DNA of 64,000 bases from Marsupella aquatica (taxonomy: Eukaryota; Plantae; Marchantiophyta). The stretch is from positions 22,729,455 to 22,793,454 of the forward strand of contig OZ316897.1 of the NCBI GenBank assembly GCA_973895155.1, in the 5' to 3' direction. The notes under the pieces are model-generated. The model saw only the letters and a program-made list of their open reading frames with translations, was not told the origin of the DNA and did no database searches. The position numbers and the translations under genes were made by a program. Positions 36,801 through 61,879 of the stretch are shown here, piece after piece (the stretch's first letter is position 1; every line of letters begins with the position of its first letter).

Positions 36801-36934
36801 GGTCCTTACTTGTCAGGTTTTGGTTGTGGTTGGCTTTTTCTAGGGTCCTTTGGGCTCCTTGCATGGCTCTTTGGTTTTTTCTCCTTGATTGATTCTCTCG
36901 CCTTGATTGGGTTCTTTACCTTATGATCATGTTT

Positions 36935-37440: not shown

Positions 37441-37529
37441 TATCAACTTAGTAAATCTCAATTTTATTATTACTACACTGAGGACCTGTAGCTAATCAAT
37501 CCAACAATCTTAGATTCTTTTCCCCACAT

Positions 37530-37785: not shown

Positions 37786-38876
37786 ATCTGATGTTTGTCC
37801 ACTTAATACCTCTTTAGCTTGTTCAACTCGACATTTTCTCTCGCCTCTCTTTTGTTTTTCCCTCATATGGTACTTTGTTTCAAATAGGACTTTTTTGTAA
37901 ATAAAGTTCCCATCTTGCTTCCCGTGTGTTCATTATTTAGAGCCATTCAATCACTTGAATTGATGCTCCAATGAACTGCGTCATTCTACTTAACATTTGA
38001 GTTTGCACAAACTCAGATGAAAGACTATGTATTTGATGTTTGTTATTTAAGTGTGAATTTGAGCTTTTTAATTATGAATTGTACGAATAAAGCATCAAAT
38101 ACATTCAATACGTCAAGAGTTAGAATTATAGCATAATTCAAAGGAAAGTCATGTTTGTGTGAACTAGAATCCGGGATGGACTGATAGGTTGTCTATGAAG
38201 CCCCCATGGACAAACCAAACTTGGATGAACTTGACTCAAACACACATGCATGCTTGGATACTATGTTTTAAACTTGTGTACAAAAATACCCTGTCAGATC
38301 ATCACTTCTGTCCAACTATCCAAAAGTACCATGTCAAAGCACCATGTCTGTCCATTTTTGTCCAAGGGTACCATGTACCATCATTTTTTGCAAGCCTCAT
38401 TGTATCTCGTAATATTCTATTCTCTCAAGCTAGTCACTTTAACCATTTTTTTAGAGATCAATAAAAAATATGAAATATGTAAGGTATGTTTAGATATTTG
38501 TAGGCCTTATCTGGCCTTTATGGTAAATCACAAGGACGATATGCATGGTCGAGGAGTTGGGGATTTCCCCACCTAACTTGGTGAATCAGTGTACCATAAC
38601 AAAGAAGTGGGGATTCCGGACATCTTAGGTAATTTGGTTGAAAATACCCATGCTTTCCCATACATAACGAGGGATTTGATACTTCTAGCAGTTCAACGTT
38701 TCCCTGGGGTAATTTGCCTATGTGTCCCACAGGCGTGACATTTGGGGCGTTTCCCGTAATATACCCAACTATAGAAGGGTTTAGCGCCTCCGCATTTCCC
38801 CACATTTGCGTGTTTATTTGTATAAGCCGGAGGCAGTTGGCATAATCCAGGTCCTTGGATGGTCGCGCTCTCCGCA

Positions 38877-39865
38877 ACATCCGTGTGCATATTACTCGCA
38901 TACCGTGGGGTATCGCTGGGGTATTTGGGATGTCAGCGTCCAATTGCCGCTCTCCAAGTGGCTTCGCTGAGGTGTGCAGGATGATATTCATCTCCACCAT
39001 CCAATTTTGTTGTGGTAAAGTGGGGATTCCGTGTGCATATTACCCGCATACCGTGGGGTATCGCTGGGGTATTTGGGATGTCAGCGTCCAATTGCCGCTC
39101 TCCAAGTGGCTTCGCTGAGGTGTGCAGGATGATATTTATCTCCACCATCCAATTTTGCTGTGGTAAAGTGGGGATTCCGTGTGCATATTACCCGCATACT
39201 GTGGGGTATCTCTGGGGTATTTGGGTTGTCAGCATCCAATTGCCGCTCTCCAAGTGGCTTCGCTGGCAGCCCTGGAGGTGCGCAGGATGATATGCATCTC
39301 CACCGTCCAATTTTGCTATGGCTAAGTGGGGATTCCGTGTGCATATTACCCGCATACATTAGTGTATCTCTGGGGTATTTGGGTTTTCAGCGTCCAATGG
39401 CCGCTCTCCAGGTGGCCTCGCTGGCAGCCCTGGAGGTGTGCAGGATGATATGCATCTCCACCATCCAAATTTCCTGTTGTAAAGTGGGGGTTCTGTGTGC
39501 ATATTACCCGCATACCCTGGGGTAGATCGTTGGGGTATTTGGTATGCCACTTCCAATTGCCACTCTCCAGGTGGCTTCGCTAACAGCCCTGGAGGTTTGC
39601 AGGATGATATGCATCTTCACCGTCCAGATTTCCTATGTCGAAGCGGGGATTACTTGTGCATTTTACCTGCATACTGTGGGGTATTTGTAGGGTATTTTTG
39701 ATTCCATGCTTCTTGCTGCGTCAAATTGCATCCGCATCGTCAAATTCCAGGATAATGTGCATCCGCATCGTCCAAATTGCCTACGGTGAAGTGGGGATTC
39801 ACGATGTAACGCCTATGTATTGTGGGGTATTGGGGGATCCTCACGTATTACCAATGGGGTATTAA
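38877..39865. repeat. 148-159-bp satellite, ~6.5 copies, GGGGTAT-rich
   Basis: tgtgcat anchors at ~38881, 39029, 39177, 39335, 39494 and 39652. The first two units are nearly identical and later ones diverge progressively. Confidence 0.95.
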
Positions 39866-40098
39866 AAATGTCTGGCGTCCCCAGATGAATTGCATCGAAA
39901 ACCATCCAGTCATATTGCCAATGAATACCATGAAATGTCGATGGGTATCGTGAATGTAAGGTTCTTTATTGGGCCCAGCTTACGCAAATCAAATTTCTAA
40001 TATGGTTTTGAATCATTTCCTCATAGCGTTGTAAATAAGATCACAGTGAGTTAAGTAGCATTCATTTGTACATTAGAAACTAAGTACGTTAGCAACTC

Positions 40099-40101
<3 letters not shown>

Positions 40102-40172
<71 letters not shown>
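40102..40172. repeat. Compound (TC)n(AT)n microsatellite
   Basis: Read directly from the sequence. Confidence 0.97.
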
Positions 40173-40175
<3 letters not shown>

Positions 40176-40291
40176 AAACACGAAGCAAGTAGTGGTGGCC
40201 CTTGGTCAATATATAATGCAATCATATTCATAACCTGTCTAGCTTGTGCCGTTCATAGAGCGATGCAGGTATGCTATCTATGTAGTGAGTA

Positions 40292-43200
40292 CTATACCTC
40301 TTCCCCAGCTTTCTTCATAGCATTTTCAGGGAAGATCCTTTGTTGGCCATCGGCATTTAAAGCCGGAAGATGTGTAGCGATCACTACATTCTGCTCTACA
40401 ATCCACCTGGCCACCATGTCCAATAACTCTGATGCATTCTTCTGAGCGTGTTTGGTGAATGGCTTGGGGGTAGTCTTTGACCGCTTGTTCGTATCTGCTA
40501 CAAACGTGCGCAATTTGGCCTCCACTTCGCAGGTCTTCATCAAACCCATGGCTCTCATGCACAATACTAGTTTGGCGTCTTTGGTGAGCTTTTCAAAATT
40601 CTGCAAAAGTTACAGTCTTTGGTGAGCTTTTTAAAATATGGTAGTACACCAATGACAAGCTATAAATGATTATTTACAGAATCGTGCAAAACTTCTCAGT
40701 ATATGCTTACTATATTGGAGTCTCCAGAAGCCTGGGACTTGTTACTTCTTGTCGACCGGGTTCCTTGAGCACACAAAACTTCTTCCTGGTTTGCCTGTAC
40801 ATATATAATGACCACATAATGAGACCACAAGAGTACATTCCACACATACAATTTCTGTCTACACATTGTACACAATGATCGCTGCAACCTAATAAAGACT
40901 GCTGGCTTACAATGGATGGAAATAAGAAATCATACCATGTTTTTGCCGGTCAACAACCGTTCCCTTGCATCCTCCTGTACCTTTGTTGAAATAGCTCTAA
41001 ATGAAGGTACGTTTTCTTTGCTTGGGTTCGGACCCTTGCCTCTTCGTGCTCTACTCAATGGTTGATTTAGGTCCCGAATGCTTGCAAGGACTCCACCTTG
41101 TTCCTTCTCGATCTTAACCTACCATGCATATGTGGATGTGCAAATCATTGTATATATTGGTGAACCTAGGCTCAAAGTAGAATGAATTGCAAAGTCATAT
41201 ACATCACTTACAATAGAACTTTTAGGCCATTATAATAATTGCAATATACAAAACTTATACATACAATGATATATGATATATACCTTGGACAGTAGCGGGT
41301 TGTTTCCCCCTGTAGGATTGCTCTCAATCTTTTGTCTTTTTACCTGAAAAATAAGTATAAAGCAAACTCGGTGTCTTAATTTTAATTACGTACGTATGAT
41401 ATATAAGAATGCAACTAGCATGACAAAATACTCGTACCTCCGGTTCCGGTTGATCGTTAGGACTTATATTAGTGTCTTCATCATCCTCGTCAGATTCAAT
41501 GTAAAGTTGGGTGGATGTAGTGAAGCAATCAACTTGCAAGTTGATAGTTGATGTTGACGATGTTTTCTCCTGGCTACATGTAGTGGTATCCAGTACTTCA
41601 GTATCCTCGCTTGGCTCTCCATCGCTGGACCTGACCGCATCATCTGCTTTGCTTTCCTCTCTATGCTCTACTTCCACCCCTCCCTCTGCATCTTCTTCAT
41701 GGCCAGCTAATGCCAACACTCGCTTCTTTGGTTTTGAAAGAGGGTTTTCCTCAACGTCAGGCATCTCCGGTAACCCCGCTCCATTGGAGGCCTTTCTTGA
41801 GACAGCAGAACCCTCAGGAGAGGGACCTATCTCTGGTAACCCCGCTCCATTGGAGGCCTTTCCTGAGACAGCAGAACCCTCAGGAGAGGGACCTATCTCC
41901 GGTAACCCGCTCTCTTGGAGGTCTTTCCTGAGACAGCAGAACCCTGAGGAGAGGGACCTGAATACGATTGGCATACTTTATGAGCCAGATTGGGACTCAT
42001 GGAACAATATGCTCTCGGAACAAAAATGGACATGTCCTGCAATATGTACATGCACATCAATAGTGACGGTGCACGAGTGCCAAGGAATCTTGCAATATAA
42101 ATATATTGTAGAAAACCACATTCATTCAACATCTCTACCTCTCGATACATATCGACTGGGCAACATGAAAAAACCTGCAGAACCCAGAGAAGCAGATTCA
42201 TTCCGATGCAATGAACCTAGGGTTGGTAAATGCATATATATATTTATATATGTATATGGCACCATACTTACTGGTTTTAAGTGCCCAAACTGTACCATCT
42301 GCGGACCCTTTGAAGGTGTCATTAATGGCACCCAGTAAGGCGCCAACAATGACGGATTACCATCAGACAAGGCCTTCATGAACTTAATCTTCCACCATCT
42401 CACTTTCTTAATAACATGGACGCTCTCTGGTATTCCACGACCAACAACCTCTCCACTATACTGCCCCCTATACCTTACAGACTTATCGGCGTCTCTCATT
42501 TGCAGTTCTACCAAGGTCACCTTTAATGCATACGCACGAAGTTCCACAAAAATCTATGGGTATGATTGTCCATGTCCAATGGCAATCGCTTCATCTGCAT
42601 CTGGTTCTACCTTCATATCTGCAAAATCAGTCAGCTCCTTTTTTCGGGCCGTAGGGATGGCACCTGCAATGAAATTCAGTGCAAGTACTTGAGGTTAATT
42701 CCAGGGTATTTCCAGGTTATTTCCAAGTTGCGAAAGATAGAACACAGTTCATTGCCAAAATCAATGGCACTGCGCTAACTAATGAATGGGAATCTGTCAG
42801 TACGTACCTTCCTTGATTTTTGCATTTGCTTTCCTCCATTCATGCTTTCTGGCCAAGGCATCTCATGTTTAGATCTGGTTTCTGGACACTCAAATTTGAG
42901 AGGTGAAAGTTCGTGCATTCTACTCTGAACATACAATCGACAATTCTCTTTTGTCTTTGTGTCAGACTTGAAATCTGCACTGAGGTATTCGTATATCTCC
43001 TTGTCGGTGGCGAAATTCGCAAACCAATTCCTCACCGTTATGTAATTTGCCTTGTGAGCTTGGTGCGCTTCTACATGCTTAGAAGCCAGAATGGACCGTC
43101 CTCCAAATTTGTTGGTCACATTGAAGATGTCCTCTGCCAAAGGATAGAACTGTGCATAGCAGCGTCGAAACACACATCAGCGTGTATTCAATCAAACAAA

Positions 43201-43774
43201 GAAACTACCATTGTGCACTGCATTAGATGCCTTCGCGTGATTATCAGAAGTGGTCCTTGCCGTGGTCGCAATGGATTTCAATAGGCTAATTTAATGTCAC
43301 GGGAGACAAACAACTTACTTGATGATGCTTGGTAGAACCAATCATAGACGTCTCTCTCTCCGGCGCATCAGGAGTGCGGGTATTTTCAGCAGGCCTGATA
43401 GACTTGTGCTCTTCTTCACCAGAGCTCTCCTTTCAATTCGTATCACGTTTAGATAGTGTCTTCATTGGCGGCAACGGTGATGGCTACAGCGGTGATGGCT
43501 ACAGCGGTGATGGCTGTAGCTGTGATGGCTGTGTGACTCAAGTATTGTTGCTCCCGTTGCATTCATTCACCCATCTCCTCAACTTCTTCCTGTGCACCCA
43601 TGTCTTCATCCCCACACTGTCAAAGAAAAGTTGCCAATCATCCCCATCCATACAGAAGAAGCTTTCCCCAGTAAGATCCAACTCCTCAATTTTGGGAGTG
43701 TACATTGTCGATTCTAAACATCGATCAATGTTTTCACACAATTCCTTACACGTAAGCCTGCTCCATTCATGCAT
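40292..43774 (-). pseudogene. Multi-exon transposon accessory gene(s): N-terminal SAM-like domain, QPSPL repeat, TnpA/Tnp1(En/Spm)-like segment, 23-aa repeat and acidic region
   Basis: WS..C..LC...Y..KIEELDLTGESFFCMD.DDW..F..SVGMKTWVHRKKLRRWV fits the SAM pattern. GEVVGRGIPESVH..KVRWWKIKF..ALSD....LLAPY resembles Tnp1/DUF8039. 69-bp repeat x3 at 41760-41960. GT donors at 43318 and ~42806. Several in-frame stops. The exact exon structure is uncertain. Confidence 0.5.
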
Positions 43775-46170
43775 TGCAACTCTGTTTCAATCAACATCAA
43801 TCAAATGTAGGAAACTCTAAAGATCGACTTCACTCCAGGCGTACGCGTAGCAGAAATAGTGAAATACAGAGGGGGACTTAAAACAAAAAGGGAGTATTAC
43901 ACCAAGCGCACTCACTGCCTCTCTCGTTCATCGTTTGTTTGAATCGCCCACCCGCACGTGTTGAAGGTAAAGGCTACGGGTTCATTGTCCGTTTGAATCA
44001 CCCGCCCACGCGTGTTCAAGGTAAAGGCTGCAAGGAAAGTAGTGCATGTGTTGCCCGTCTCAAAGCTGGTCCTCGTTAGTTTTGAACTGACCGCCCTGGT
44101 CCAAATTAATAATGTCACTCTTCAAAATGCGATATATCCACAGTCCATTGCGTCAACCGCATCGCTGATTTTGTTTCTATCCAGCCGATTTAGGCCGGGG
44201 ATTTAGGAGTTGCGGTCATGATTATACAGCTGGGAAATTTTCCCTCACTCTACTATTCTAGGCCTAACTCAAAAGTCCACGCAGTTTGGATTACTATGAC
44301 AAGCTAGGACAAGATACAAACTATTCCCATGGAGACTAGCGCAGCCTGCGCTTCGGGAAAGTAAAGCCGCCAGCTACGATGACCTTTTGATCAATCAGAA
44401 GCCTATGTGGCAAATACCCTACATAGGATACCAAGAAGATAAGGCTGGCCTCAGTTTCCCTCCAGTTTCAGAGGGATTGTTTCCGCGGGAACGATTCCAA
44501 AGGTACTAAAGAGTGGAGGTCATTGACCGTAGCTCACACCTCCCACTCTAAGTGTTCGATCCTCCTCTGTGCGAGCTCAGACAACTTCAGAATAAGTTTT
44601 ACAAGTTCGCGCCCGATAACATCATCCAAAACGTGGAAGTCCACAGGCCACCTGCGGATCTTCGTACTACGTGGGAGAATTCTCTGTCAAATCCCATGCC
44701 ACCTTGTGCGATATCCTGTAATGTGTTTTGGATTTGGTAGAAATTATTGGCAGCACTCGGAGTCAATTCTTTTGATTGCAATAGTTTTTGCTTATGATTT
44801 GAGTTTGAAATGTGCTCACAGGTCAAATACAGGGTTCTCGTATACTTCAAAGCGAAAGCAAATCTTACCTAACCCTTTACCACCCACTTCTTCCTTAGCC
44901 CGGGCTTACTAGGCTACGCAGGTCATATGAAACAGGTAGAGCATTAATATCAGAGGAAGTGAAGAAGCGAATGTGACGTATTTTGTTCTGCCGGTGCGAG
45001 GTATGTGCGAGGTATGTGAGGGGTATGTTTGGGGTATTTGTGGTTATGCTCATTCCAACACTTATGTTACAAGGTTAGTATGAGAATGAACTCGGATATT
45101 TAGAACAGACCACACTTTTTGAGTCTTTGAGATTACAATTGAAGCAATATACATCATGAGCGCCATGCTGACAAAGGTGTTGTGGCATCGTCCGAGGCCG
45201 ATGCTTGTTTTGTGGCAACCGCCCGGGTTGCCTTGACAGGTAACCGGGTTGCCAGTATGCTGTCCACCCCCCCTTGCCAACCGGTATGCAATGGTAAGTT
45301 GTCGCAAAAGAGAATTTTACAACCTATTTTACGCATATGGAATTTTTCGTCTATTTTTTCATGATTACTTACTTCTTCATTGAGTTGCAGGCGTTGCCCC
45401 GGCCTTCAAAGTGCGAACTCCATTATTCATTTACATACATTACCCATCAATTCTCCATAAATATAATGAACACCTACTGGAACAAGAACACATCTGCCAT
45501 AAATGTATTGTTTGGGGTCACGTTGTTTTTACGGTTGTCTGTATGCTTGTGTTTTTTTTCCCTTCCTGGTTGTTGGGATCGATGGAGCCGCGGATCCGCC
45601 CAATGAGTTTCAGGTGTTTCTCTGTTTTTTGGTCTGTTGATGTCCAGACATTGGGGAGGGGCCCTTACCCAATTCTCCGTGAACTATGATGACCCAATAC
45701 ATGATGTCGCTGCGATCCGCAAAAGCGCTATAGTGGCTGAGTTCTATTTGCTGTCCTATATCAGAGTTTGAAGTTGGAAGTTTTCCTTGAGAAATTGCGC
45801 ACAAATTGCAAAATGAAAAATTGCCGAGATCCATTCATCAATTAAACACTAGCCGAGACCCATTCATCGATTAAACACCAGCCGATTAACACCCAATTAC
45901 TTTCTGGTATGTTTTAACAAACGCATCGTGGACATCACAACCTTCATTTAACAGATGCAGGTCCGAGCCCCCCTTTATTGCACATTGAAAATAAGTCGAC
46001 CATTCACATACATACATTCTGGTCCCACTTGCCCCACAAACCAAGCATACACGTTATGCCATATCAAACCAAAATGGCAGGTCATTGCATGGCCTGTAGG
46101 AACCTTACAAACTAAAAGACTCCTGCCCAAAATGCCAAACCATCGTACGTTGTGCTTGCATCTGGTCACA

Positions 46171-46875
46171 TCAGATATGAGTTGCATCCAAACTATCAAG
46201 CAGGTCCTGCAATCTACATCTAACAGAACTAAGTTGCGACGCCGTGGCCGGGTCTGAAGCATTAATAGATGATCTTGAAGATTCTGCTATATGCCTCCCT
46301 CGTGCAGTATGATAACTCGAAGGTACATTGTCCGTCTTCAACTTCGTCTTCCGTGGAGTGACAGAATTAGGCACCACAGAATGCAAGATCTCACAGTCGT
46401 CATCGCTTACAGGTGACAAGGAATTAATAATGGCCTCACCGTCTTTGCAGCGGATCACTACGTCCACACATTCCATCTTTGCTGTAGCTCTATGGACAGT
46501 AGCAAACTGGACAAAGTCTTCCTTCTCGCTAAAATCCTGCGGAGGCATCCCTATGAGATCAGTTGCTGCATCAAAAATCTTAGCTCGCACTGGAGGTACG
46601 TGTGGCCCGATAGTAGAGTCAACCAGGAACACCTCAAAACGATACCTTTCTGTCCAGGGCCTAGCAGCAACCGAATTATGGGGACATCGACTTGACCCTT
46701 CAACAGTGCGATTACACATCCACCCAGGTGTCACGAAGCGAGTGCATCCATGGTATAGAAACTTCCGCGGAAAATCGATTGGAGCATCAAAATTGACCAC
46801 AAAAACCCTCATTGATGGGAAGGTCCTCGTTTCTCCAGCATTGCAGCAGCCAACGACATCTTTAAGTGTGGCCAT
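46171..46875 (-). CDS. RPA70 C-terminal (DBD-C)-like Zn-binding OB-fold protein, intronless and intact
   Basis: LYHGC-x9-CNRTV-x5-CPH...RYRFEVFLVDST...IFDAATDLIGM matches the Rep_fac-A_C pattern YxAC..CxKKV...C..RY.l.v.v.D.TG...F...Ae.llG. Confidence 0.7.
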   Translation of the reverse strand: MATLKDVVGCCNAGETRTFPSMRVFVVNFDAPIDFPRKFLYHGCTRFVTPGWMCNRTVEGSSRCPHNSVAARPWTERYRFEVFLVDSTIGPHVPPVRAKIFDAATDLIGMPPQDFSEKEDFVQFATVHRATAKMECVDVVIRCKDGEAIINSLSPVSDDDCEILHSVVPNSVTPRKTKLKTDNVPSSYHTARGRHIAESSRSSINASDPATASQLSSVRCRLQDLLDSLDATHI

Positions 46876-47859
46876 GTCTCTGAAAAGAGCCACCCAGCAG
46901 AAATCCAAACAATAGTGGCGAAGGGCAGGCACTCAGCCGGGCGCAAGCACTACTCAGGAAGGGACGAATACCGATCTGCAATGGTTGCGAATCAAATGAC
47001 AAGCCGGACTGCAGAACACTCGACAAATTGTGTAGAGTTGTCACTAGATAAGTACATTATCGTGGGGTGCAAAGTGAATGCAAGTAGAGGATCCAGAAGG
47101 GAGACCCGGAGTTTAGGGCCGAGTTTTGGGAGACGTTGATTTTACGGGGATGTTGACTTTACGGAAGCGGAGCTTTGGGAGACGTTCATTTTAGAGAGAC
47201 GCGGAGTTTTTCTCTTGGGAGACATGGCGGACACTTCGTGTACTTGGGCACGTTTTAATGGAGTAAATATGCGGCAAAATAAATCAAATAAAAAAGACTT
47301 TGTCTCCTTCCGTTCTAAATTTCTCACCCTTCCCCTAACATAAATCTGAGTTTTCATTTTCTGAAGGCATTGGCTGAACTTGTGGGAGCTTTCCTTACAT
47401 ACATTGAATCTTATAGAGGTTGCTATATGGCTGAACTTGTGATGAGGGGCCTAAAACAGGGCCCATAATAATGTCTACAATACTTCGTCAGTGCCATGTG
47501 CCACATGTTTCAAATGTTGGATCTAGGCCCTTATATTGCCAGTTATATGGACCATTGGCACACTTTATGTCACATCATGATGACTTACAAGGGGAGAGTT
47601 TTTAACACATTTTCCTGCTTTTAAGGTGAAGTTATAAGGGTTTTTGAAGAGGAGGGACACAAAAGCATTGGGTGAGGCAGGGGTCATTTTGCTTTTTAAA
47701 ACTCTATTTTCTTTTCTTAGGGGGGGGGGGGGGGGTCATCACGCACTTAGTATATATTATTACATAAATATGAGAAACATAAAAATAAGATTGGAAATGA
47801 TTATCATTTCCTTGCCAAGTCCTGTGAAACGCGACCAAACATACAGCTAGGCAGGCGTA

Positions 47860-48136
47860 TTAATTAATTTAAGGATGAAACATGGAGGTAGCTCAGGGTG
47901 GGTGGGGGTGGGGGTCACTTCCACCCATTAAATGTTCACATCATGTGCAAATGATTGAAGTAAGGGGCCTTTTATTCATTACCCTAACCCTAAACCCTAA
48001 ACCCTAAGACTTGCGCACATATATGCATGCATGCATATGTGGAAGGTTAATTAATTTAAGGATGAAGTATGGAGGTAGCTCAGGGTGGGTGGGGGTGCGG
48101 GTCACTTCCACAAATTAAATGTTCACATCATGTGCA
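47860..48136. repeat. Two ~90-bp direct repeats flanking a short telomere-type tract (47982-48007)
   Basis: ttaattaatttaaggatgaa..atggaggtagctcagggtgggtggggg...catcatgtgca occurs twice, with ccctaa-ccctaaa-ccctaaa-ccctaa between the copies. Confidence 0.85.
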
Positions 48137-50005
48137 CCAAAGTATGGGGCGTTTCAGTCATTATTAATTTGTAAGGAAGTGCTTAGAAGTAGGGATGAAG
48201 TAAGGGGGTAACAATTCAAAAAGTCCCACTTTTCATCACACAATTCATTGGTTGCCACATGTCAATAAATGATTGGTGGGTTTTGTGACATTCCTATTCC
48301 TTTTTGAGAGAGTGATTAAATCAAACATGCATGTTCGCAGATGCATGTATAACAAGTTCCGTGATCCTAAGGTGAACTTGGGAGGTAGCTAGGTAGGTAC
48401 CAATTGTCTCAGTCCCTTAACAATAGAACTTATAAAGCGCCAACTACAAGGTAGATCGAGTGAAACCTCTTAATTAAACTGGAACTCCATGGCTGATCAT
48501 GTGGATGAGAAAACTCATGACCAGTATGTCAAATAATAAGCATGTATGCCATTTGTCATGACTTATACGTACTATCCTCTATTCATGTTTGTGCAAAGAA
48601 CAGGTAGTGAAGGCTAGCTAGTATGATATGTCAATGGAAGGGTAATTTAAGGATTAATAATCCGTAATCTAAGGATTTTGAAGGTTGACCATCATTAACA
48701 AGTGTGACACTATATAAGAAGTGATCGAGAGTAAATACATGCCATTCTATATTCAAGTAAGTTAGATTACTTTTGGTGACAAGCAGATAGACTCTGAATT
48801 GATGTGTGTAACTTAACATTTTACAAATGAAGCTCAATTACATTTCAAACTTTATTAAAGTTTGACGAATTGAAAAGCGGATTATGTACGTAATTATAAA
48901 ATCAAAATCAAAGTAGAATCCCTCGGCCCTCCCTCTTTTGCTACATTAAGTGAACCCCCCTGAGAACAAACCCCCCCATGTATATCGTTTGATGCATTAA
49001 AAATGCCTTGTTATGCATGTAAAAACATTACTTATCCTATCACATTAGATCCTTTTGTAAATTAGTACTAGAAAATTATTGTTCTTCCTGTGTTAATTTG
49101 TCTAAAACTCTGGTAGCTTATAGACTTCATGAAGGTAAACAAACTAGTACTAAAATGAATTAACAAAGGGAATATTAGGCTACACTATATCCCTAGAGGA
49201 ATATTCCATAGTCTACATTACTTATTTAAACTTCAATATATTGCGCCATTACTCTATCTTCATTTAAGAAGGGGGTATCAACCAATGACCTATTTTCAAA
49301 TGGTACATTGGGGGTCCTTAACCCCAAAACAAATTGACATGAGCACGTAAGATTGAGGCAGCAGGGTATTTCAGGGTCACACAATAATTAGTATGTGTGA
49401 CACTAATCTTGTGACATTTGAGATGGCTGATGTCGTGGCCAGCCCCTATAACCAGCTGGTATGCATTTGGTGAACTGGAATGCCATTAAAAAGCTTGGAT
49501 GACAATTCTATTTACATAGACCATATTGTAAGAAAGGATGGGTCATATACAAAATAAATAAAGACCTAGACAGGGCCCAACAGCAATTTCAATGTCCCAA
49601 CAATAATAAAAAACATGCACTTTGAACCAAATATGTCAATAAACTCCTAGAGTAAGCTGCCCAAGAAAGAAACCATACACATGAACTTCAAATTTGAATA
49701 GCATAAGCATGAATTCAACATGGTGAGTGACTGCCTTAGAGGGATTAGAGGCAGTGGCCCTGGGCTTGCAGGGTCAACGATAAGGTTTCCCACCTAGCAC
49801 ATTCGCTCACATGCAACAAGGACGTTTGAATGCTTTCCCGGAGTCATGAATGTCGTGGGCCCCACCTAATTATGCACAGTATTCAACATAATAATGAACT
49901 TCTCCAATCGTCCTTCCGACAATCCCACCGCGCACATCCACCTCCTGATGAATTCTGAATCAACTTCGTTGCAATATTTTGTACACAGGAACGGCAGTGT
50001 GCACC

Positions 50006-53000
50006 ATGACGCCAGAACCGAAGGAACAATGCACCTGTCAGTACAAATGTTTGCGCTTACGGGATGGGTATGATTTTGTGAGCCCAAGGAATCAAAGACG
50101 ACATGCAAACTATGACAAGACAGGCAGGGTCATTCCTGCAAAGTTTTTAGTGGACCATGGGCATCCGGATGGCCATGGCCTATCGCATCAAGACGGTCAT
50201 TCTGCCAGCTTCTTAGGTGTTCAAATGTCCCGACAAGAACATAGATATACGGCCCCAACTTTGTTGTACAGGGCACTTACAGGAGGAGACGGGAATGATG
50301 ACGTTGGAAGAAACGATTTGTAGGACCTGGATGTTGATGGGATTGGTCAGACGCTTCCCATGCAGTATGGTATCCACATAATGCCTCAAAGAATACTGAC
50401 CGTGGACGAAGCAATTTATCGACAGACTTGTAGATTACAATCAATGCTTGACGAGGCTAAAATGCCTCAGGCATTGCAGGTAGCATTTTGAAAATGCTAT
50501 TCGGGAAGATTCAGATTCCCCCATCTACAAATTTGACACCTTCACCCGACCCTCCATCCGACATGGCAAATGTAGGACTGGGTGCACTCCTGAGGCACGC
50601 TCAGTGTGACGTGGGACGGAGGACGCCATGGAATTGATGCATTGTCATCATTCAAGGGTTTGTGTGGCACGTTTGAGGCATATGGTATGCCAAAAATGCA
50701 GCGGTGGAGAATGTGTATTGGACAGAAGCCAAACTGGCATGCTCTCGTAGTCCTAAAGCTGTCGCACCAAGATGACTACAATGTCCGAACTGGATTGAAG
50801 TGTAGTTGTTCAATCGCAGGGACGAAGTGGCATCTAGCCAGGGATTGTTTGCGTTGTTCGGAACGTTGCCCATTTGATGGTTGCAGCACGGCTCGCAAGG
50901 AGATGCTCTGGTTTGAATATTTCCCCATTGGTCCCATGTTGCGGAAGTTATGTAGCAGTCGATCTGTTTGTCATGAGTTCCAGGCAATGTGGAGGGACAA
51001 AGATAAGTGGTTTAAGAAGGATTCCATGCCAAGACCTGTGTACAAGGAATGGTGGGATGGCTACCATGCTTCCGAGCTATCCTACTTTTGGGACACTGGC
51101 ACACAGTTTGAGATTCCCGTGTTATGCCGAAACTGTTATGCTTGCTATTCAACAACACCAAATAAATGTCCTGAGTTGTTGGATACTGCCAACTGGGATA
51201 ATGTCAGCAAACAATACAACTTCCAATGCTCAGATTGCGGATCTCGAGTCACGGCCCCGAAACAATTTGCAAAGGTTAGTGATTTCTTCTTGCGTTACTG
51301 TTGTTGCGCACTTTTGTATGACCAGGGTATGGTATGGGTATTTTTAGGGTATTTATGGGTTATGATAGAGTAACTTTTGTCTAACTAGTGTGACCCACCG
51401 CATGCAGAGTGATCCCCAAAATATTGCACTCATGGCACACTGGGATGGATTTCAGTCTGCCAAGACTGCCCACAAAAGCACTTGGACTGTAGAGGTCCAA
51501 GTTTTAAGCGCTGGGTCTCAAACCAAAATTCCACCTATCCCTGTTCTTTTTATCCCGCCATGTGATGACGACGACGTAGGAAAAAAAAAGCTGAAATGCT
51601 TGGATGCTTTCTTAGAACCATTCATAAGAGAACTGGAGGAGTTGTTTGTGGATGGGATAGAGGTGGATTACAATTACCCTGTGGAATTATTGGCTGAAGA
51701 GGATAATGTACCGAATGACTCCAGGTGTGTGCTACAAGCACTGTTAGCAGTTTTCACTGGAGATCATCCCGCACAATGTAAATTTGGGGGCTGGAATGTT
51801 ATAGGTTATTCCGCTTGTAGGAATTGTAAAATGAGCACTCGATGGATGAAGTGCAAGTTTGATCATCCTCAAAAGGAGACTGACCAATCACAACCCCGAG
51901 GTTTTCTGGGAAGGGCTGTGTATGACAACAATAGGATGCAGATGAGATATCCACCACCTACACGGAAAATTGAAGAGGTGAGGGAGGCGGCCAGGAACAT
52001 GACCAGGGCAGGAACAACTACAGAGAGGATGAAGATAAGCAGGGAGTGCAGGATTTCAAACATGACCAGGGCTTGGCGACTACATGAGCTTACTGGATTT
52101 TGTTTGAGCAAGGATCTGGTGTATGATACAATGCATATCCTTGCCTTGTGCCTTTTCAAGAAATACTGCGAGCTTCTAGTTTTGAGTGTTCCCCGTCAAC
52201 ATCAAAAACAGTTTGAAGATGCTCTGGAGGAGGTTACTGCTAGGAAACCGAGAGGTTTTGATGGAAGGTGGCCTAAACAACCTTTTGAAAGATTGGGATA
52301 CTTCAAGGCTGAAGAGTTCACGCGATTCATATTGTATTGTCTGCCTCATATCCTCCAACAGATGGACATTAGTGTCCACTCTGACCTTGGGACGCTTGGG
52401 ATTCTTTTGGTAGAGATTGCACGCCTCTTTTATATCAGAAGTAGACAAGAGGGTTGGACTACAGCCACATTGAAAAAAGGCAGGTCTCTACTGGCTTCTT
52501 GGAGAGTTCGCTCAGAAGAGGCTTGGGGCCCAAATGGAGCAATTCTAGAGCATGTTGCTGGTGAGTCATTTTGTTTACACTTGCTACATGACCATGATGA
52601 TAGTGGGTATTCATTGTTGGTCGATCCATCATTGCACTGAGGTGATGTTCTAATCCCAATGTGTTTTGATCCCAATTTTTAGGGAGCGGAGAGATATTTG
52701 ATGGGATAGAACGACATGGCCCACACTATGTTTATTGGTGCTACCACTTCGAGAGGATGGTATCAGACTATGGACGCACCAGAATAAATCAGAAGGACCA
52801 GGAAGTCACTTATTCTCAGATTCATTTTGCACGACGCTTTTTCACAAAAATATCGTCGTACATTTGGGAAGATGACGATGGACTTTTCCCTCATCAGAGG
52901 GCTTTGGAGAAAGTTCATGCATCCCTGCGTGTCCCTGCGGAGCATCGTAAGGAGCACAGGTGCAGAGTCACTGTACCACCATCTGAATGCCCACACTGGC

Positions 53001-54052
53001 ACGGGAATTCAGTGCCAATAGTTTCAAGTCAAATTCTAGCGATGGAATTGTGGGATAGTATGATATCCTCTGTGGAGTCATATGGTTGCAAGCACATGTT
53101 GTTGAGCAAAGGGGTTGGCATAGGCTCAAACAGGAAGCTGACAAAGAAACTGGGGTTGTCCGCCAGGATGTCATTGAAGCAGCATTGGACAGATGTTGGA
53201 GTATTCAACATCAGTGAGGACCACGAAATTAGTGAATCTTGCACTCCATTGCGATCAGCTGTGTGGAGAGCTGAAGTGTACATGCCTGGCGATCACGTTG
53301 TTGTACTGGTAGATGGGAGTACAGATGCTTCACATCCTCAAAACTGGAAAGCAGTACTCCAAAAGATTTTCATGCACGATTTCGATGGCCACATGGACAT
53401 ATTCTTTGAGGTGGATTGGTATAAACAACAGTATACACAGGATCCTTGGCAAAATTTATTGTCTTGGGAACGAGATGAGTATTCCCTGTTTACTCTTTTG
53501 GAACCAAAAGTATATCACGCACATGGCAACAACTGTAGGCCTATGTCAAGAATTCTACACAAGTTCTTCCCAATTCAAAGAGGCGGGAGGGAGGTTGTAG
53601 CCTTGGAGATTGGAGATACTTTAGTACGGGAACTCCCTACCACAATTGCAAACTGCCCTCCTTTCCCAAAGGTAGGGGACATAATGATTGCAATAGCGGA
53701 CTCACTTTCCGTCCCTGACCTGTGTGTTGTAAGGGAAGTCCTCCTTCCCAGGTGCGATGCAGCAACGGAAATGCAAGCGGGGGATGTAGGAGTGGACGGT
53801 GCTTCTGACGAGGAGGAGGAGGGAGGGGATGACATGGCATAATTGCACAATGCAAATGATACTGAGAAGGACCTCGGGAAGGTTGGTGTGAGCTGGTTGT
53901 CTGTACAGGGTTCTCGGTCAAGTTGCCCAATCTACAAGGCAGTGTCACAAATTGATGAACACATCACCTTTCAAAGATTAGTTGCGTTGAGGCTTGATTT
54001 TCGTGCAATTGGACTTCACCATGGTATCCCTGTACGGTGGAATACCGTATAG
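50006..54052 (+). pseudogene. CACTA/EnSpm Tnp2-like (Transposase_21-type) DDE transposase, disrupted; introns 51275-51407 and 52561-52682
   Basis: N-terminal CxCxxxC. Motifs NIALMAHWDGFQ..S.W, LDAFLEPFIRELEELF.DG, GDHPAQCK..G....Y.AC..C, YDTMH, FKAEEF and HGP..V.WCYHFER. In-frame stops at 50321 and 53840 and frameshifts near 50480-50600. Confidence 0.85.
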
Positions 54053-54798
54053 TAATACCATGGAAAGTCCCAAGTACGACAAAAAGAAAGATACTATGGG
54101 ATATGACAACACTTGAGAGGCGCCGTTTTGTCAATAATTGAATACTGACCAGGATGCAGACCGTAGGATGTGCGAGATGCAGGTCAGACGTGAGCCTGTG
54201 ATGGTGACACTATAGTGCTTCGCACGGGGTATGATCGGGGACGGCACGGGTCACGAATATCATTGGATTCTGGGTCGGACGTGACATAATGGATGGGTAT
54301 TACCAGGTTACTTGGGAACGTGATAAAATGTATGTTGGGGGAGTGAAAGGGCGGTGCCACCGATCGGAGACAGAATCTATGTTGTGAGATCTACTACTGA
54401 AATTGCAGTGACTAAATGATGCATGCCACTGCGCACATGAATGCCCTATGAGGAATTCCTTATAAGCTTTGGGCAATGGTGCGAGCTCCTGAGCTCCAGT
54501 CTTTGATTGTGTAGGTTTCGTAAATCTTTGTGGCTGACAAGTCTGCCATTGGATAACACTTGGGGTGTTAGCGACGGAAGCAAGTATCGACGAGCGCGGG
54601 TGACGTTGGAGGATTGGTGAAAGTATGGTTCATCGACATGATCATCCAGCGCCGGTCGCATTGTTGATGCAGAGCGACGAGGATATCACAGATCGTATGT
54701 ACCCCTCTTTCACTCAACTCCTTTGGTTCTTAATTCCGCATGAAGTATATTGATCAATTGTTAGAATGGCGCAACTAAGGCCTGCTTTGTTTGTACAG

Positions 54799-57700
54799 TC
54801 GTGACGGAGACGATTTGGAAGTCATGCTCGGGGAGGGTAATACGGCATTATCTAGCGATGGCCCCTGCAGACCCTAAACCCTAAACCCTAAACCCTAAAC
54901 CCTAAAGCTAGAAAAGCTGGTTTGGTTCCATGTTTTGAACTCGACTGGCCCAGAGTTGCAATTCCTACTATAAAGGAGTTCGCAGTAGGGTATGATCAAG
55001 GTCAAAACTGTGTGTCATTCTGGGGTGCAACTCACACATTCAACAGAGAGGTATTGCGAGCTGCATTTGCTTTTCCATCTGGAGAATGGGCCCGATTTAA
55101 ACCTGGGTTGGGCCAAGGTCAACTAAATTCCATGTTTTCTGCCAAGACGAAAGGCAACCCATACAGTCTAGACAAAATCACTGCGCCATATATGCAATGG
55201 TGTGGGATAATCAGGGCAATTTCTGAATTGCTCTCAGGCAAGAGCAAACCCACTCAAGTCACCTCAAAAGACATGTGGGTATACTGGGCGTATTGGTGGG
55301 ATACGATTAGGGTACGTGATCATTTTAGAGGAGCTGAAACTCCCGTGGTGAAGCCCGATTGGGCACATTTGGTGTACGATAATCTGACGAGTGAGATCCT
55401 CAAGTTAAAGTCACACCTATCGAAGAATGGTGTCGTAGACAAACGACTTCCTTGCTACTGTGGCACTGCTATCACGCAGATTCTTGTACACTACGGGTAT
55501 TCGCTGGAGGAGCTTATGGTCGAACAACACGAAGATGATCATGAGGAGGACGACAAGGAGGAAGGGGACAATGGCTCACAAGAGGACGAGGAAGGGGAGG
55601 CTGGCTCACAAGAGGACAAGGACGGGGACAGTGGCTCACAGGAGGATGAGGAAAGGGATGACGGATCACGAGAGGACGAGGAAGGAGAAGATGGCTCACG
55701 AGAGGATGAGGAAGGGGATGGTGCGTCTGACGGTGAGGGGCAGCCATCGGAGGTTGCGCCCCAATTCTCCAGGGATGAACATAAATGTCCTCAGGGTGAG
55801 CACAAATCGCCGCCCTCTGTGCCAGAGTGCATGCGTGTTCTATCACAGCACATACGTGCGCTAGAGGTTGATCTTGCAGAAAAATTGGACATGCTACGAG
55901 AAGCAGTGGAGAATCATAAAAAATTGGTCCTCGATTTGATGAAAGAAAACGACAGATAGAGAGTCCGCATATTAGAATTGGAATGGCAGGTTGGGTTGCA
56001 TTCAGAACAAGTTGGCAGTGAGACATCGAGTGGAGAAGGTGAGAGCGGAGGTGACAAGAGATGTTGTGAGGTTCTGGTAGGTCTTGGTGCCAGGGTACAT
56101 GCAGGTTATGATGCAGAGGCATCACAGCGTAGCCCAATTTCAGAGTTACCGCCAGTTTCTGGTGTTCCAGCTATAGTAGAGGTACCAGCAGCAGCACCAG
56201 CAGAAGCAGGTACTTTCCCAATTTATTATTCTGGTGTTCCAGCTATAGTAGAAGTACCAGTAGCAGCACCAGCAGAAGCAGGTACTTTCCCAATTCATTA
56301 TCCTACTTCAAAGATACAACGAGAGGAGTCTATGTCGAGTGGAGGTGACTCACCAGTTTTGGTAGAGTTACAGGCAGCCGCACCACCAGTACTGGCAGAG
56401 GTACCGGCATCAGAAGAAGTGATGTCACTTTTAGAAGGAGAGGCACCAAATGCTGCACCAACATCAAAAGTAGAGGTCTCAGCTACAGAGGAGGACAAAT
56501 CGTCGGGTACAATTGCATCAGAAGTACCAGGGTCACCTCCGATTTCTGTTCTATTTCATGTTCCAACTAAGAGTCCGGGATGGGAGGCTAGGATGAGTCA
56601 CATTTCACGACAACCAAATTTTCCTCGTGCTTCAAAGAGAGGGCGAGAGGACTCTATTCCGAGTGGCAGTCACTCACCAGCGAAGAGGAGGGCTATTGAA
56701 GTGGAGGAAGAGGAAAAGGTAGAGGAAGAAGAAGAAGAAGATGAAGTGGAGGATGACGAGCATTCAGAACAAGACATTCACTGGGAAGAGTGTGCCACAG
56801 AGAGTGGAAAGGTTAGCGATTTTTTTTCCTTTGTTGTGTGATTACTGTTTTTTCAGAAACAATGTTCAAGCATATCTAACTTGGCTGTGAGCGGGATCCG
56901 CAGATTGATATCCAAGGGTCTCACTTGACAGAGGAGGCATGCCCTCCACCTGGTACAATGACTACAGCTCTATATCCACACCAACGGATTGGTCTTGCAT
57001 GGATGTTGGAATGCGAATCCGGAAAAAGCTCTCCAATTGGTGGGATGTTGGCGGAGGACCAGGTACAAAAGCCCCCAAATTAAGCCGAAGTCGCACTCAT
57101 TATTTTCATTCAGCGGGATACTTTGGGGGTATTTTTGGATTATGTTAGGGGTACGCGCGCACCTTGTCTGCAAGTGATTGTTTCCCTGACCATTTTCTTG
57201 GCTTGGATTTTTTTAGGGAATGGGGAAAACCATGCATGTCATAGCGCTATTTCTCGCGAATCGCCCTCATAAGTGTGGGCCAACTTTTGTCCAGCCAGCG
57301 TGGTGATTCAATGGGCCAAGAAATAGCTGCAAGGACCTCCAAGATAGCAAAAGTGAAGGTCCTCCTCTACCACAACAAGAGGAATAAAGACATCAACTTT
57401 ATTTCAAGCCATGACGTGGTTGTCACTACGTACTCAATCATGACAGGGGAGTCTCCCATTGCTCCAAAGACGTCCAGTGTGCCAAAAGGGAGTATGAAGA
57501 GACCTGTAAAAAAACCTAGACTTTCAGGTCCACTGTTAAAGATTAATTGGCTTAGAGTAGTCCTGGATGAGTGTCATGTCATGAAAAATAAAACTAGTCA
57601 AAATTTCAAGGCCTCGCGTTGTCTCAAGGTAGAGAGGAGGTGGTGCCTAAGCGGTACACCCATACAGAACGAGGCTTCTGATCTGTTTCCTTACTTCAGT

Positions 57701-59577
57701 TTTTTGAGGTATTATCCTCTAGGAGAGTGGAAGGAATTCTCACAGTTAAAGAAGCTGCTGAAGACAAGGCCAAAGATAGCGAATGGCATCCTCTCGAAAC
57801 ACTTGGTTGCGATTGCGCTCAGGAGAGACAAAAGTAAGCATGCATGCATATATCATGGTAGAGTTCACTTTGTTTAATCCCAAGCCTGATTTCTTTATCA
57901 ATTGTGCGTTTACCCTGCCACTGTGCTTACATGCAGGCATACTCCCACTGCCCCCTAAGATGATCGAGGTGCAAATTGTTGAATGGAGAACACAGCAAGA
58001 ACGAAACGCTTATTTTGATCAGGAGGAAAAGAGTAAGGAGTTATACAAGGTACATAAGGCTCTTAAGAATCCCCAATGTTGAAGACGTATGAGAGTTCAA
58101 TTTGATCCCTTGAAGGTGTCTGTTCGGTGGTAATTAATGTGCCTGTAATGTTGTAGGAATTCCGTGATGCTGAAAGAGGTGCCTTATCAAATGTGTTGAG
58201 CGTTCTGCTCCGGTTGCGACAATTTGCAGTGCACCCGAAACTTCCTTCCTTATGTAAAATTCGCGAAGAGGAGATCGAGAACAAAGTGCAAAGAACGCCC
58301 CTTAGTGAGCCTCAACGAGCCCGACTCGTGTCAGAGTTTCAGCAATTAAAGATTGGAAGTGCTTGCGTGGACTACAAGGTGAGTACAGTCACTCTGGGTA
58401 TGGGGTATGATTGGGGTATTTCAGTTAACGTGCTTTGCCTAACAATTTTTGCACACACTCACTTTAACGGTTGGATTGTGCAGGGGGGCTTGATTGGAAG
58501 TCCATTTCAGATTTCTGGCTGTGGCCATGTATACTGTGGCATTTGTGCAATAAACCGGGAAGCTGGAACCTGCAAATCGGCAAAATGTTCAAAATACGTG
58601 ACAGCCCAGGTCCTATACAGGCCAGCTGATTTGAGGCTAGTGAATGGTGGTGCGGAGTCAAAAGGGAAGGTGCGAAGAGAATATGATGTCCGACACCCAC
58701 CTTCTCCAAAATTTGATGCAGTCTTGGAATACCTAAAGTCGATTCCGCTGGACACTACAGGACAGGGCAGCAGCGAAAGCTTTGTGCCCAGGCAGAAGGC
58801 TCTTGTTTTCTCACAATGGACTTCGTGTCTCAACATGCTTGAGCCACACATTCTGAAGGCTGGTCTAAAGTTCACAAGGATTGATGGAGGAATGAATTCC
58901 AATGTCAGAGAACAAGCCTTGAATGATTTCAAGATGACCCCAGAGGTACAACCGTCATTATCCGTGCAGATCGATGTCTGTATTTGTTCAAAGGGTAAAC
59001 TCTTTATATTCTAATTAAATTGTTTCTACTCATTTCATGCAGATCAGCATTATCCTCTTGTCCTTGATGGCAACGAACACAGGACTCAACATCACTGAGG
59101 CTACACATGTTCTTATGGTAGACGGGTGGTGGAATCCCACGGTAGAGGACCAAGCCGTCGATCGGTCACATCGTATAGGGAAAATAAGGCCGGTGAAAGT
59201 CGTCAGGTTTATCGCCGAAGATTCGATTGAGTTGAAGATTTTGGAGCTGCAGGTAAGATTAGAAGTGCTTGTGTGGACTGCAATGTGAATAAAGTCACTC
59301 TGTGTATGGGGTATTATTGGGGTATTATTGGGGTATTTCGGTTCATGTGCTTTGCCTAACAATTCCTGCACGCACTCACTAGTAATGATGAATTACGAAT
59401 TCCATATATGTGGTCTCTAATTGTATGCATGTTGCATGTTTTGTGCAGAACAAAAAATGAGTGATGATCAGGGCCATCATGTATGGCTGTGCAACCGGGA
59501 AAAAAGATAACATGGAACAAAATCTGGAGTTCATACTGGGAGAGAATCGGCAACAGAGGTTCAATGCATCAGAGTAG
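54799..59577 (+). pseudogene. Fusion gene: plant transposon-protein-like N-terminal domain, acidic repeats and coiled coil spliced to a RAD5/RIS1(FRG)-type SNF2-RING helicase; disrupted
   Basis: Exons ~54799-56811, 56904-57062, 57217-57833, 57937-58049, 58157-58378, 58484-58945, 59043-59252 and 59449-59577, all with GT-AG borders. Motifs LYPHQRIGLAWM, GGMLAEDQ|GMGKT, W.RVVLDECH, RRWCLSGTPIQN, LLRLRQ, CGHVYC..C, KALVFSQWT, GLNITEA.HV and WWNP..EDQAVDR.HRIG. Stops at 55957 and 59458 and two frameshifts near 57285-57315. Confidence 0.85.
54872..54906. repeat. Perfect interstitial telomeric tract (CCCTAAA)5
   Basis: Five exact Arabidopsis-type telomere units. Confidence 0.97.
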
Positions 59578-61429
59578 CTAGATGAGTTTTAGCTAAGGTT
59601 CTCTTCGGTGCTTGAGTCAGTTAGGCAGTGACACTCTTACTGTTCGTTTACTTGTCAGTGCCACTCTCGTTTCCTCCCGTTGTGATTTTAGTGCAGCGGG
59701 ACAACGATGAGACTAGGAGGACAGAGCCTGAGTGGGTCTTTCCTTGCCACATATGTACCTGTTCGAGCCTCCTGTGGGAGCATTATGAATTGAACACTTC
59801 ATCTTTGAATCATGTCCATTGTTTCTCATGTCCAATGTTTCTTTGGTATTCTTTCTTGTGTTCTTTTGTGTGTGTTTAGGGTTTAGGTTATGCACTTGCA
59901 AGACACACCGAATGATTATCCTAGGGACATAGATAATTTACAAGCATAGCAGCCCGTCCACTACAAGGAGATTTGGTTCCCTACTAAATATGGGACAAAT
60001 ACCTTACCATGAATCGCTTTGATATGAGGGGAATGAATTCCCAACTCATCTTCTGGAAATTACCCCCAATAGTAAGGGGGCGGGGAGCATGAGGTACGTT
60101 GGGGTTAATTTCCCTACTTACCCCCTATATTCCCCTCTTTCAAACTCCTAACCTTGCAGATCTTCCTTGTGAATAAACTTATGTTTAGACTAAGCTCTTC
60201 ACAATTTACTCATAGCGCCTCAAGTAGTTTGTTCAATGAGCAAAAGCAAAATTAACTCAATTTTTTTCAAGAATATTTTTATGTTTATAGTAGATCGCAA
60301 AACTCCTACAAAAGGGGGAAACAAGCACCACAATGACCCATGAACCAACATAACAATTTCCACTAGGAAAACAGGGGACAAATCTTGATTTTCATAGAGA
60401 ATTGCTCTTGAGATGGAATACTATTTTCCATAGAGTGTTGGCCTTGTGTTAAGGAGCCGGGGTTTGACTTATTTTGTTGCAGCAAAGCTAACTCAGATTT
60501 TAAACTATGAGGGTATTGTTGAGAAATCCTATTTTTCAGAGAGCGTTGCTCTTGTTACAATAAGCGCTTTGAGTACTTTGCCGTCGTAGAGGTCTCAAAA
60601 ATTTCAAATTATAGAGTACTAGTTGTACACCTTTATTTCATTTCATGCATTTTTTCAGTTCACTTTTAGGTGCACATAGTCTCCTAACATAATTAAAATG
60701 TAGGTAAATAGCTAATGAGCACATTTATTACCTAGATTTTCTCATCATTATGTGTAAGATGCTCAGTTTATGTGTCACAGTCCATGGGGATGTTGGGAGA
60801 CAACCTCCTAGTCCATCCGGGCTTTGGTTTCTGTTTTTGTATGCTATTTTTTAATCACTTTGGGGAAAATCATGAAAATATTGAAAAGAGAATTCAGGCC
60901 TTGGACTCATGATTTATAAGGCTTCTTGTTATGGACCTCCATTAGGGGTACCTTGCAAAATTCCTGGTACAAGAGAGTGTCACATCAGCAAGTATGACAC
61001 GGGGTGTGACGACAAACCGAATACAACACGATTTTGGACCGACCGAGAAGTGTGTCGTTTAGCCCGATTCCATTTTTTTTCTAAGGCAATGCAATCTTTG
61101 ATAAAACGCCCGCAAAATTAAAAAAACATCAGTTGCCTACATTGCATCGCCACAAGAATGCAGGGAGCGATATGTGCATCGGGTTTTACATTTGGAACGT
61201 AATAAATTCCAAACTATGAGTAGCTTGCTCCCAACTAAGTAATCGAGGATCGACCACGCACTAACCTGAGTTAGTGCAAACTTAACCATGGTTAACAAGG
61301 GAAAATAACCATGGTTAGAGCATTCCCTATATATAAAGAGGAGCAGGCTGCCCATAAATGGTTTATTTTCTCTAGAGCTCCTATCAAGTCTTACATTCCT
61401 CCCATGAGATTTGATTCTTTCTCAAGAAA

Positions 61430-61830: not shown

Positions 61831-61879
61831 AGTCTTCATTCTAATCCAAAGTTTGGTTTGTGAAAGGGTATAACTAACA

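Follow-up and report, generated by a model that had tools for sequence, protein, structure and literature searches.

The window analysed here, a stretch of 64,000 nucleotides from the liverwort Marsupella aquatica (contig OZ316897.1, positions 22,729,455 to 22,793,454), carries a multi-copy transposable element of the CACTA/EnSpm type in which the short motif GGGTAT recurs on one strand, in direct repeats that follow each other at a step of 11 bp. Besides its transposase, the element has a predicted accessory gene (gene A) and a predicted fusion gene with an SNF2 ATPase. It seems, with a confidence slightly better than even, that the arrays form a code specific to the family, which an element-encoded protein would bind so as to keep the element active. 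A selected, family-specific recognition code appears to be supported by the sequence, because unrelated sites share the core, the strand and the step of 11 bp, because the host DNA of the window lacks such arrays, and because a sister family swaps the motif.

A one-stranded motif with an 11-bp step

For the counts, the window was split into host DNA (1-37500) and the element body (39961-59400, with the satellite left out), and expected numbers were taken from 100 dinucleotide shuffles. The body holds 24 copies of GGGTAT on the + strand and 1 on the - strand, versus 4.4 and 3.5 expected (Poisson 6e-11 for the enrichment, p 1.5e-6 for the strand), and in terms of strand asymmetry the motif ranks first of 3910 hexamers. 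The host part contains 8 + and 10 - copies, as expected, so that within the window the motif is not equally frequent in host DNA. When neighbouring copies and a duplicated pair are merged, 16 + loci remain versus 1 - locus (p 2.7e-4, over 39961-60830). All three exact copies left of the satellite are on the - strand.

The original prediction had read the motif as a VANC-like anti-silencing address, concentrated in the satellite and introns and nearly always on the + strand. Every site it named is present (45021/45032, 51325/51336/51347, 54227/54295, 57127, 58396/58403/58414 and 59309/59320/59331), and the satellite does hold one or two copies per unit (13 + and 1 - over 38880-39960). Its placement of the clusters outside exons is borne out for 18 of the 24 body sites, where 41% of the bases are non-exonic with exon boundaries drawn by eye (p 7e-4), but not for the array at 55277, which is coding. 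The supposed cluster at 54227 and 54295 consists of two singles 68 bp apart that form no phased array by the rule used. The clusters at 58.4 and 59.3 kb both exist, but they are not independent, since both sit in a single 80% identical duplication (58349-58463 / 59255-59380). As to the origin of this duplication, the end of an SNF2 exon and the start of its intron were copied into the last intron. The array at 42693-42725 was absent from the earlier list. The satellite and the phased arrays, seven in the body and five pairs in the satellite, are the following.

38880-39960, + strand: satellite of 148-159-bp units with one or two GGGTAT each and pairs at 11 bp (sequence count, array scan)
42693-42725, + strand: phased array within the second intron of gene A, which is transcribed from the opposite strand (array scan)
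44997-45048, + strand: phased array of five units, four of them spaced at 11 bp and the fifth at 10 bp (array scan, gap count)
51325-51363, + strand: phased array of four units in transposase intron 1 (array scan)
55275-55318, + strand: phased array of four units within a coding open reading frame (ORF), reading WVYWAYWWDTIRVR (array scan, synonymous resampling)
57116-57155, + strand: phased array in an SNF2 intron (array scan)
58396-58421, + strand: phased array within an SNF2 intron, paired by duplication with the 59.3 kb array (array scan, self-comparison)
59308-59338, + strand: phased array of three exact units in the last SNF2 intron (array scan, self-comparison)

The spacing is as marked as the strand bias. 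If copies may deviate at one position, 12 pairs in the body are 11 bp apart, 7 are 22 bp and 3 are 33 bp apart; no other distance occurs more than twice, and on the host strands no distance at all does. Of the neighbour gaps up to 40 bp, 11 of 17 measure 11 or 22 bp (p 1e-8, with the 59.3 kb copy removed), whereas multiples of 11 account for 2 of 18 and 1 of 13 host gaps on the two strands. No phased array was found on either strand of the 37.5 kb of host DNA, and scanning at other spacings from 7 to 19 gave 0-2 arrays each. Short tandem duplications with a period of 11 bp number three in the body, and all contain GGTAT, compared with none of the 25 with periods of 8-10 or 12-16. The consensus unit is approximately TGGGGTATTTT, in which the core is fixed and the linkers are loose, and flanks are common to only one pair of arrays. 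Across the satellite, a long-range helical phase is not supported (resultant 0.48 at 10.5 bp, 0.68 at 11.3 and 0.62 at 9.9). CG or CHG occurs in none of the 17 core 7-mers.

In the coding array (~ 55275-55318), 20 of 24 matches are kept, a score that was reached by none of 2000 synonymous resamplings, the maximum among 120 host windows being 16. Gene A, in turn, lies on the - strand while the array in its intron is still on the + strand, so the orientation of the motif tracks the element and not the direction of transcription.

Transposase relatives and the swapped motif

Relatives of the transposase are found in Calypogeia fissa (74% over 37% of the query), Riccia sorocarpa (36-55%) and Adiantum, and a metagenome scan returned 32 loci. 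In the two closest of these, L001 and L002 (protein identity 63% and 71%), intron 2 of the transposase contains two copies of GGTTCAT at a distance of 11 bp, and GGGTAT is missing; the sister family has, in other words, GGTTCATG at an 11-bp step in that intron. Further relatives are protein calls on unspliced DNA, whose read-through tails extend into this intron. Of the bases forced by the codons, 32 of 39 in the P0001 tail and 40 of 56 in the P0063 tail follow a period of 11, which none of 2000 shuffles reached; both tails fit GGTTCAT, and their unit numbers differ. In the tail of P0003, the nearest protein (76%), five GGTAY are possible at 10-11-bp steps (0 of 3000 shuffles), whereas no GGTTCAT is possible.

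A tree was built from 28 transposases (that of the window and 27 hand-chosen from 52 matches). It places the window with P0003 at 94/91, and P0001, P0010 and P0005 with the Calypogeia protein P0033 at 97/98 (the group of the GGTTCATG carriers, the intron of P0033 itself not being visible), while the window transposase and the Calypogeia protein nest in one group at 95/93. Judging from these sequences, the motif type follows the transposase tree, the sister family having swapped its motif in the orthologous intron.

In a distant family (35%), 24-27 degenerate units of 19-21 bp around GCCCACTGG make up intron 1 of the transposase (L007:9375-9881 and L012:9321-9888), possibly a code of the same kind at two turns. 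The tail of P0056, a homologue of gene A, fits GGTTCAT, the motif of the sister clade, four times on the gene sense strand at 7, 20 and 14 bp, which is not a strict 11-bp step. Another locus, L011, has GGGTAT 8 times on the + strand and 0 times on the - strand, but its copies are scattered and unphased and were taken as chance. A tblastx search of the 32 loci for accessory genes with the whole element gave one stray match outside the transposase, the two close loci being only 1.0 and 1.4 kb long.

The element, its genes and its surroundings

The extent of the element was traced by mapping contig depth of four runs over 33000-48500, i.e. its left part only. In run X2 the summed contig depth, which is not the same as copy number, rises from 15-30 over 33000-36618 to 151-301 over 39204-47992, and before position 37541 there are 15 X2 contigs with mutually unlike loose ends. 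As this depth step and the unlike flanks (contigs of X1, X2 and X4) indicate, the DNA rightward from 37541 is repeated, and its left part behaves as a dispersed repeat. Long contigs diverge by ~ 1-2% from the window sequence. The element and its genes are as follows.

37541-60821 (minimum), no strand assigned: multi-copy CACTA/EnSpm-type element (left edge from contigs; right end maybe beyond 61.3 kb)
40291-43774, - strand: predicted accessory gene A, 8 exons by eye, broken in the window copy (7 of 7 predicted introns GT..AG)
44329-45790, + strand: possible degenerate gene D (three-frame reading by eye; the predicted intron holds the 45.0 kb array)
46171-46875, - strand: intact ORF, OB-fold candidate (ESM Atlas rank 3, Rep_fac-A_C 0.90, recognition 1585, which is weak)
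50006-53842, + strand: transposase gene with two introns (PF02992 Transposase_21, E 2.2e-7, 30.7 bits versus a cut-off of 28.6)
54624-59592, + strand: predicted fusion gene of a Transposase_32/ATHILA-like N-terminal domain, acidic and Ala/Pro repeats, SNF2_N, RING and Helicase_C (profile matches, splice join)

CACTA/EnSpm elements are typically bounded by short terminal inverted repeats beginning with CACTA/G (or CCC) and by 2-3-bp target-site duplications. No convincing pair of this kind was found in the window. The left edge at 37541 opens with a G-run, and there is patchy inverted similarity between 38168-38211 and 60780-60824 and between 37997-38016 and 61266-61285 (broadly 38.0-38.6 versus 60.1-61.3 kb). 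The 38168/60824 inverted repeat was considered as the pair of element ends and rejected, as it looks like a block within a longer decayed similarity, given that contigs ending at 38174 partly share their flank (agreement 0.55). Rfam gave no families across 37000-64000, and a search of viral contigs gave no relative.

Over 37541-38170 the summed contig depth is far above that of the element body, with many unlike loose ends, and this part may be a small repeat in its own right or a terminus that non-autonomous derivatives have in common; it opens with a 62-bp stretch bounded by GGGGGGTCA and the reverse complement of GGGGGGTCA. At 47720-48500 the depth rises and there is a direct repeat of 90 bp, together with a second start of G-run and TCA that resembles the left edge; this is possibly a nested insertion. 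Short runs of plant telomere-type repeat lie at 47981-48007 and in the 5' part of the fusion gene and could be telobox-like sites. To the right, at 61430-62700, a different motif family (the near-palindromic GATAAATTTATC, in 56-bp and 74-bp repeats) is perhaps the subterminal region of another element.

The transposase is, in agreement with a CACTA/EnSpm affiliation, of the Transposase_21-type DDE kind and contains WDG, GDHPA, YDTMH and FER, which we take to be catalytic. Its 5' part has stops, while the spliced gene is open for 998 codons from 50594. Gene A consists of a conserved, mostly helical domain of ~ 100 residues and acidic repeats, with six homologues, two of which share its N-terminal region. 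From a signature seen by eye we presume the N-terminus to be SAM-like, a label to which Pfam and PDB sequence searches lent no support. The folded domain (114 residues; predicted local distance difference test, pLDDT, 80) matched no known fold in structure searches (best Z 3.4, Foldseek E 3.5). Contigs of other copies have extra letters at 42851, the point at which gene A goes out of frame. Gene D has no Pfam match below E 0.04. The ORF at 46171-46875 is likely, on weak grounds, an RPA1-C/POT1-like OB fold; it has no Pfam or PDB sequence match, and its single-sequence structure model is poor (pLDDT 32).

The fusion gene is predicted from an in-frame phase-0 GT..AG intron that joins a long ORF to the SNF2 exons, and in the window copy it has one stop and at least one frameshift. 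Its Pfam matches are SNF2 (E 5.8e-25), Helicase_C (E 2.9e-6) and zf-RING (E 0.015), the motifs GMGKT, DECH and QAVDRSHRIGK are present, and the best solved relative of the SNF2 part is RAD5 (E 2.5e-10). In language-model features, the first 208 residues of the predicted fusion protein are similar to Transposase_32 (0.87, 25% of members) and ATHILA (0.86, 17%), both of which we assume to be PMD-related. A DNA-binding domain was not identified in the element by Pfam or by the fold searches with gene A.

Left of the element, host ORFs lie at 512-1348 and 15669-19216 (presumably an amidohydrolase and a fungal-type sugar transporter). There are also degenerate tandem arrays at 35900-36300 and 25640-26050 (40/52-bp and 17-bp units). 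A perfect 25-nt inverted repeat (34961-34985 / 35617-35641) pairs the first exon of a host gene, which we take to be P450-like, with DNA 630 bp away.

A proposed binding code and its rivals

If the arrays are a binding code, an element-encoded protein would bind these GGGGTAT repeats and coat one face of the helix, probably keeping its own family open to transcription. With direct repeats spaced by one turn, all sites come to lie on one helix face, which suits cooperative binding, and since the cores lack CG and CHG, symmetric methylation would not be expected to block it. The units may arise through local 11-bp duplication and be retained because a cooperative or oligomeric reader protein binds them; slippage would then account for the multiplication of units, not for which of them survive. 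Reader and motif would change together, giving each family its own address. Such a co-evolving protein reader is suggested by the finding of one core, strand and step at unrelated sites, kept within a reading frame and swapped between families. Candidate readers are the Transposase_32/ATHILA-like domain predicted to be fused to SNF2, gene A and the transposase itself; which of these it would be, and whether the outcome is a loss of silencing via the SNF2 ATPase, are the least certain parts of the proposal. A more elaborate version, which we regard as doubtful, gives the element a sequence-specific remodeler of its own: a PMD/VANC-like reader fused to the RAD5-like SNF2, or a SAM-polymerising partner, would line up head-to-tail on the polar 11-bp arrays and load the motor one way along the element, each family rewriting the core but keeping the step.

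Several observations weigh against a binding code with an element-encoded reader. The element was analysed in one degenerate copy, in which transposase intron 2 has one motif and no array, and three of the eight introns of the SNF2 gene model have arrays. L001 and L002 are near-copies of each other with two units only, and the arrays of the other relatives are inferred from protein letters. P0005 has three GGTTCA-compatible sites that are 17 bp apart and unphased, P0002, P0004 and P0006 show neither motif in their short tails (14-27 residues), and the 30 more distant loci (L003-L032) have, by inspection, no clear 11-bp excess. As for the proteins, the SNF2 part is nearest to a repair translocase (RAD5) and not to a classical remodeler, and the Transposase_32/ATHILA likeness stays below 0.9 and is a lead only, searches for sequence relatives of that domain having found none. 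The Pfam scan of the ORFs found no VANC (DUF1985, DUF287) or TnpA family, although it took single exons of a degenerate copy, so that a remote fold could escape it.

Alternatively, the arrays could serve transposition (end synapsis, cis-loading or target immunity), with the transposase or an accessory protein as the binder and no role in silencing. The polarity tracks the element, with the exact copies left of the satellite reversed, weaker copies occur on both strands near 60.0-60.1 kb, and a TnpA-TnpD transpososome has been modelled for Spm3 (PMC13547354, in the part available); most arrays, however, lie 5-20 kb internally and in introns, whereas the ends hold scattered singles only, which makes this unlikely. 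It is more improbable still that the arrays are neutral products of slippage and duplication that spread within the element and have no reader, even though the linkers are alike within each array, one array pair is a plain duplication, P0001 and P0063 differ in unit number, the element contains many other tandem repeats and the distant family has its 19-21-bp intron array. Neutrality leaves unexplained why unrelated sites agree in core, strand and step, as well as the in-frame exonic array, the 16:1 polarity after collapsing, and the same step with another core in the sister family.

Less weight still falls to the remaining explanations. Alternating G-rich and AT-rich half-turns might position or exclude nucleosomes, with SNF2 acting without a sequence reader. 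The 11-bp period fits this, as do the satellite units, which are near nucleosome length and differ by about one turn (148 versus 158-159 bp), but the arrays are only 2-5 turns long, such signals require neither strand polarity nor a fixed core, and the satellite lacks a long-range phase, so that the chance is slight. Slighter by a shade is that of a recruited host DNA-binding factor: it would agree with the failure of Pfam and fold searches to identify a DNA-binding domain in the element, and host PMD proteins do work via motifs against Polycomb (10.1101/2024.09.27.615353, as far as available), but the 37.5 kb of host DNA, which include several genes, are free of arrays, and the motif differs between related element families. 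That the G-rich strand acts single-stranded, as G-quadruplexes or as sites for the RPA/POT1-like OB-fold protein of the element, is very improbable; the arrays at 51325 and 55277 match a four-G-run pattern and the element contains the OB-fold-like ORF and telomere-type repeats, but the other five body arrays do not match, the sister motif GGTTCATG has two Gs, and a fixed helical step points to double-stranded DNA. Hardly credible is a splicing signal at the RNA level (G-runs or decoy G|GTAT donors), which would suit the intron enrichment and the position 17-56 nt from donors in plus-strand genes, but not the antisense array in gene A, the presence in the satellite, or the absence of GTAT from all 8 clean predicted donors (of 9, one being mis-set).

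Among known systems, the binding code favoured here recalls first of all VANC, which targets tandem repeats in introns in a family-specific manner (PMC5735166, PMC10398659, available passages) and resembles MAIN/PMD in predicted structure (PMC13547354, likewise in part). According to these passages, VANDAL elements have, like the present one, a short motif in intron or intergenic tandem repeats that differs between related families, copies that vary in repeat number, and accessory proteins with tandem peptide repeats; that the unit TGGGGTATTAT and VANDAL YAGTATTAY both contain GTATTAY is probably chance. The transposase, however, is of the MuDR type there and Transposase_21 here, DUF1985/DUF287 were not matched in the element ORFs scanned, and the SNF2 cargo sets the element apart, as do its single orientation and 11-bp step, the VANDAL passages stating nothing on motif spacing or orientation (PMC5735166, PMC10398659). 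For VANDAL, moreover, binding and hypomethylation have been demonstrated, whereas a reader of the present element is a proposal.

The original prediction inferred a convergent, sequence-specific self-recognition system in a CACTA lineage. As an idea this is less novel than it supposed, since Arabidopsis Spm TnpA binds and demethylates family-specific terminal motif clusters, a system reported only in flowering plants (preprint 10.64898/2026.08.24.746577, available parts). The main text of that preprint, as far as available, does not mention liverwort, moss, fern or spacing. Spm shares with the element the transposase superfamily and family-specific, clustered 6-10-bp motifs that track element phylogeny, but its clusters are at the termini only, whereas the present arrays are internal, and no TnpA-like protein, which would carry two tandem tri-helical HTH motifs, was identified by the Pfam scan or in the 114 residues of gene A that were folded. 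In fact, sites with a score of at least 10 number 3 in 37541-38879 and 1 in 59601-60830, none of them phased, versus 12 in the satellite and 25 in the body, in a count for which the right end is unmapped and the satellite begins 1.3 kb from the left edge. Compared with TnpA sites, the arrays here differ in lying internally, as in VANDAL elements, in having one orientation only and in their helical step. Giant Plavaka elements (EnSpm) of red algae are similar in size (~ 20 kb), in having several accessory genes and in tandem arrays proposed as self-binding sites, but they carry ParB/2OG-oxygenase and methylase-SET cargo and inverted-repeat arrays beside one gene (10.1101/2025.02.11.637652, in part), compared with SNF2-RING, OB-fold-like and SAM-like cargo and direct phased arrays throughout in the element. 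The host PMD proteins MAIN, MAIL1 and MAIL2 are likewise protein-motif modules that oppose silencing, but they are host genes acting on single promoter motifs (10.1101/2024.09.27.615353, in part).

On present evidence, the element would appear to work like VANC, TnpA and Plavaka while belonging, by the features tested, to neither the VANC nor the TnpA system. A sequence-specific self-recognition system, as originally predicted, is upheld in part: phasing, polarity and the swapped motif point to a selected, family-specific code, and no VANC domain was matched. A search of the literature on CACTA/EnSpm elements (liverworts included), SNF2 accessory genes, TnpA and VANC gave no account of the element or of phased arrays, most subscription papers and bioRxiv supplements being outside its scope.

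If the arrays are indeed read by a protein of the element, transposon self-recognition would reach back to non-vascular plants, beyond dicot VANC and angiosperm TnpA. Under the proposed code, the Calypogeia fissa elements with P0033 should contain GGTTCATG arrays at a step of 11 bp. A fixed step with a swappable core would offer a clean test of how reader specificity changes, which is an open point for VANC, and a reader fused to SNF2 would amount to a natural programmable remodeler.

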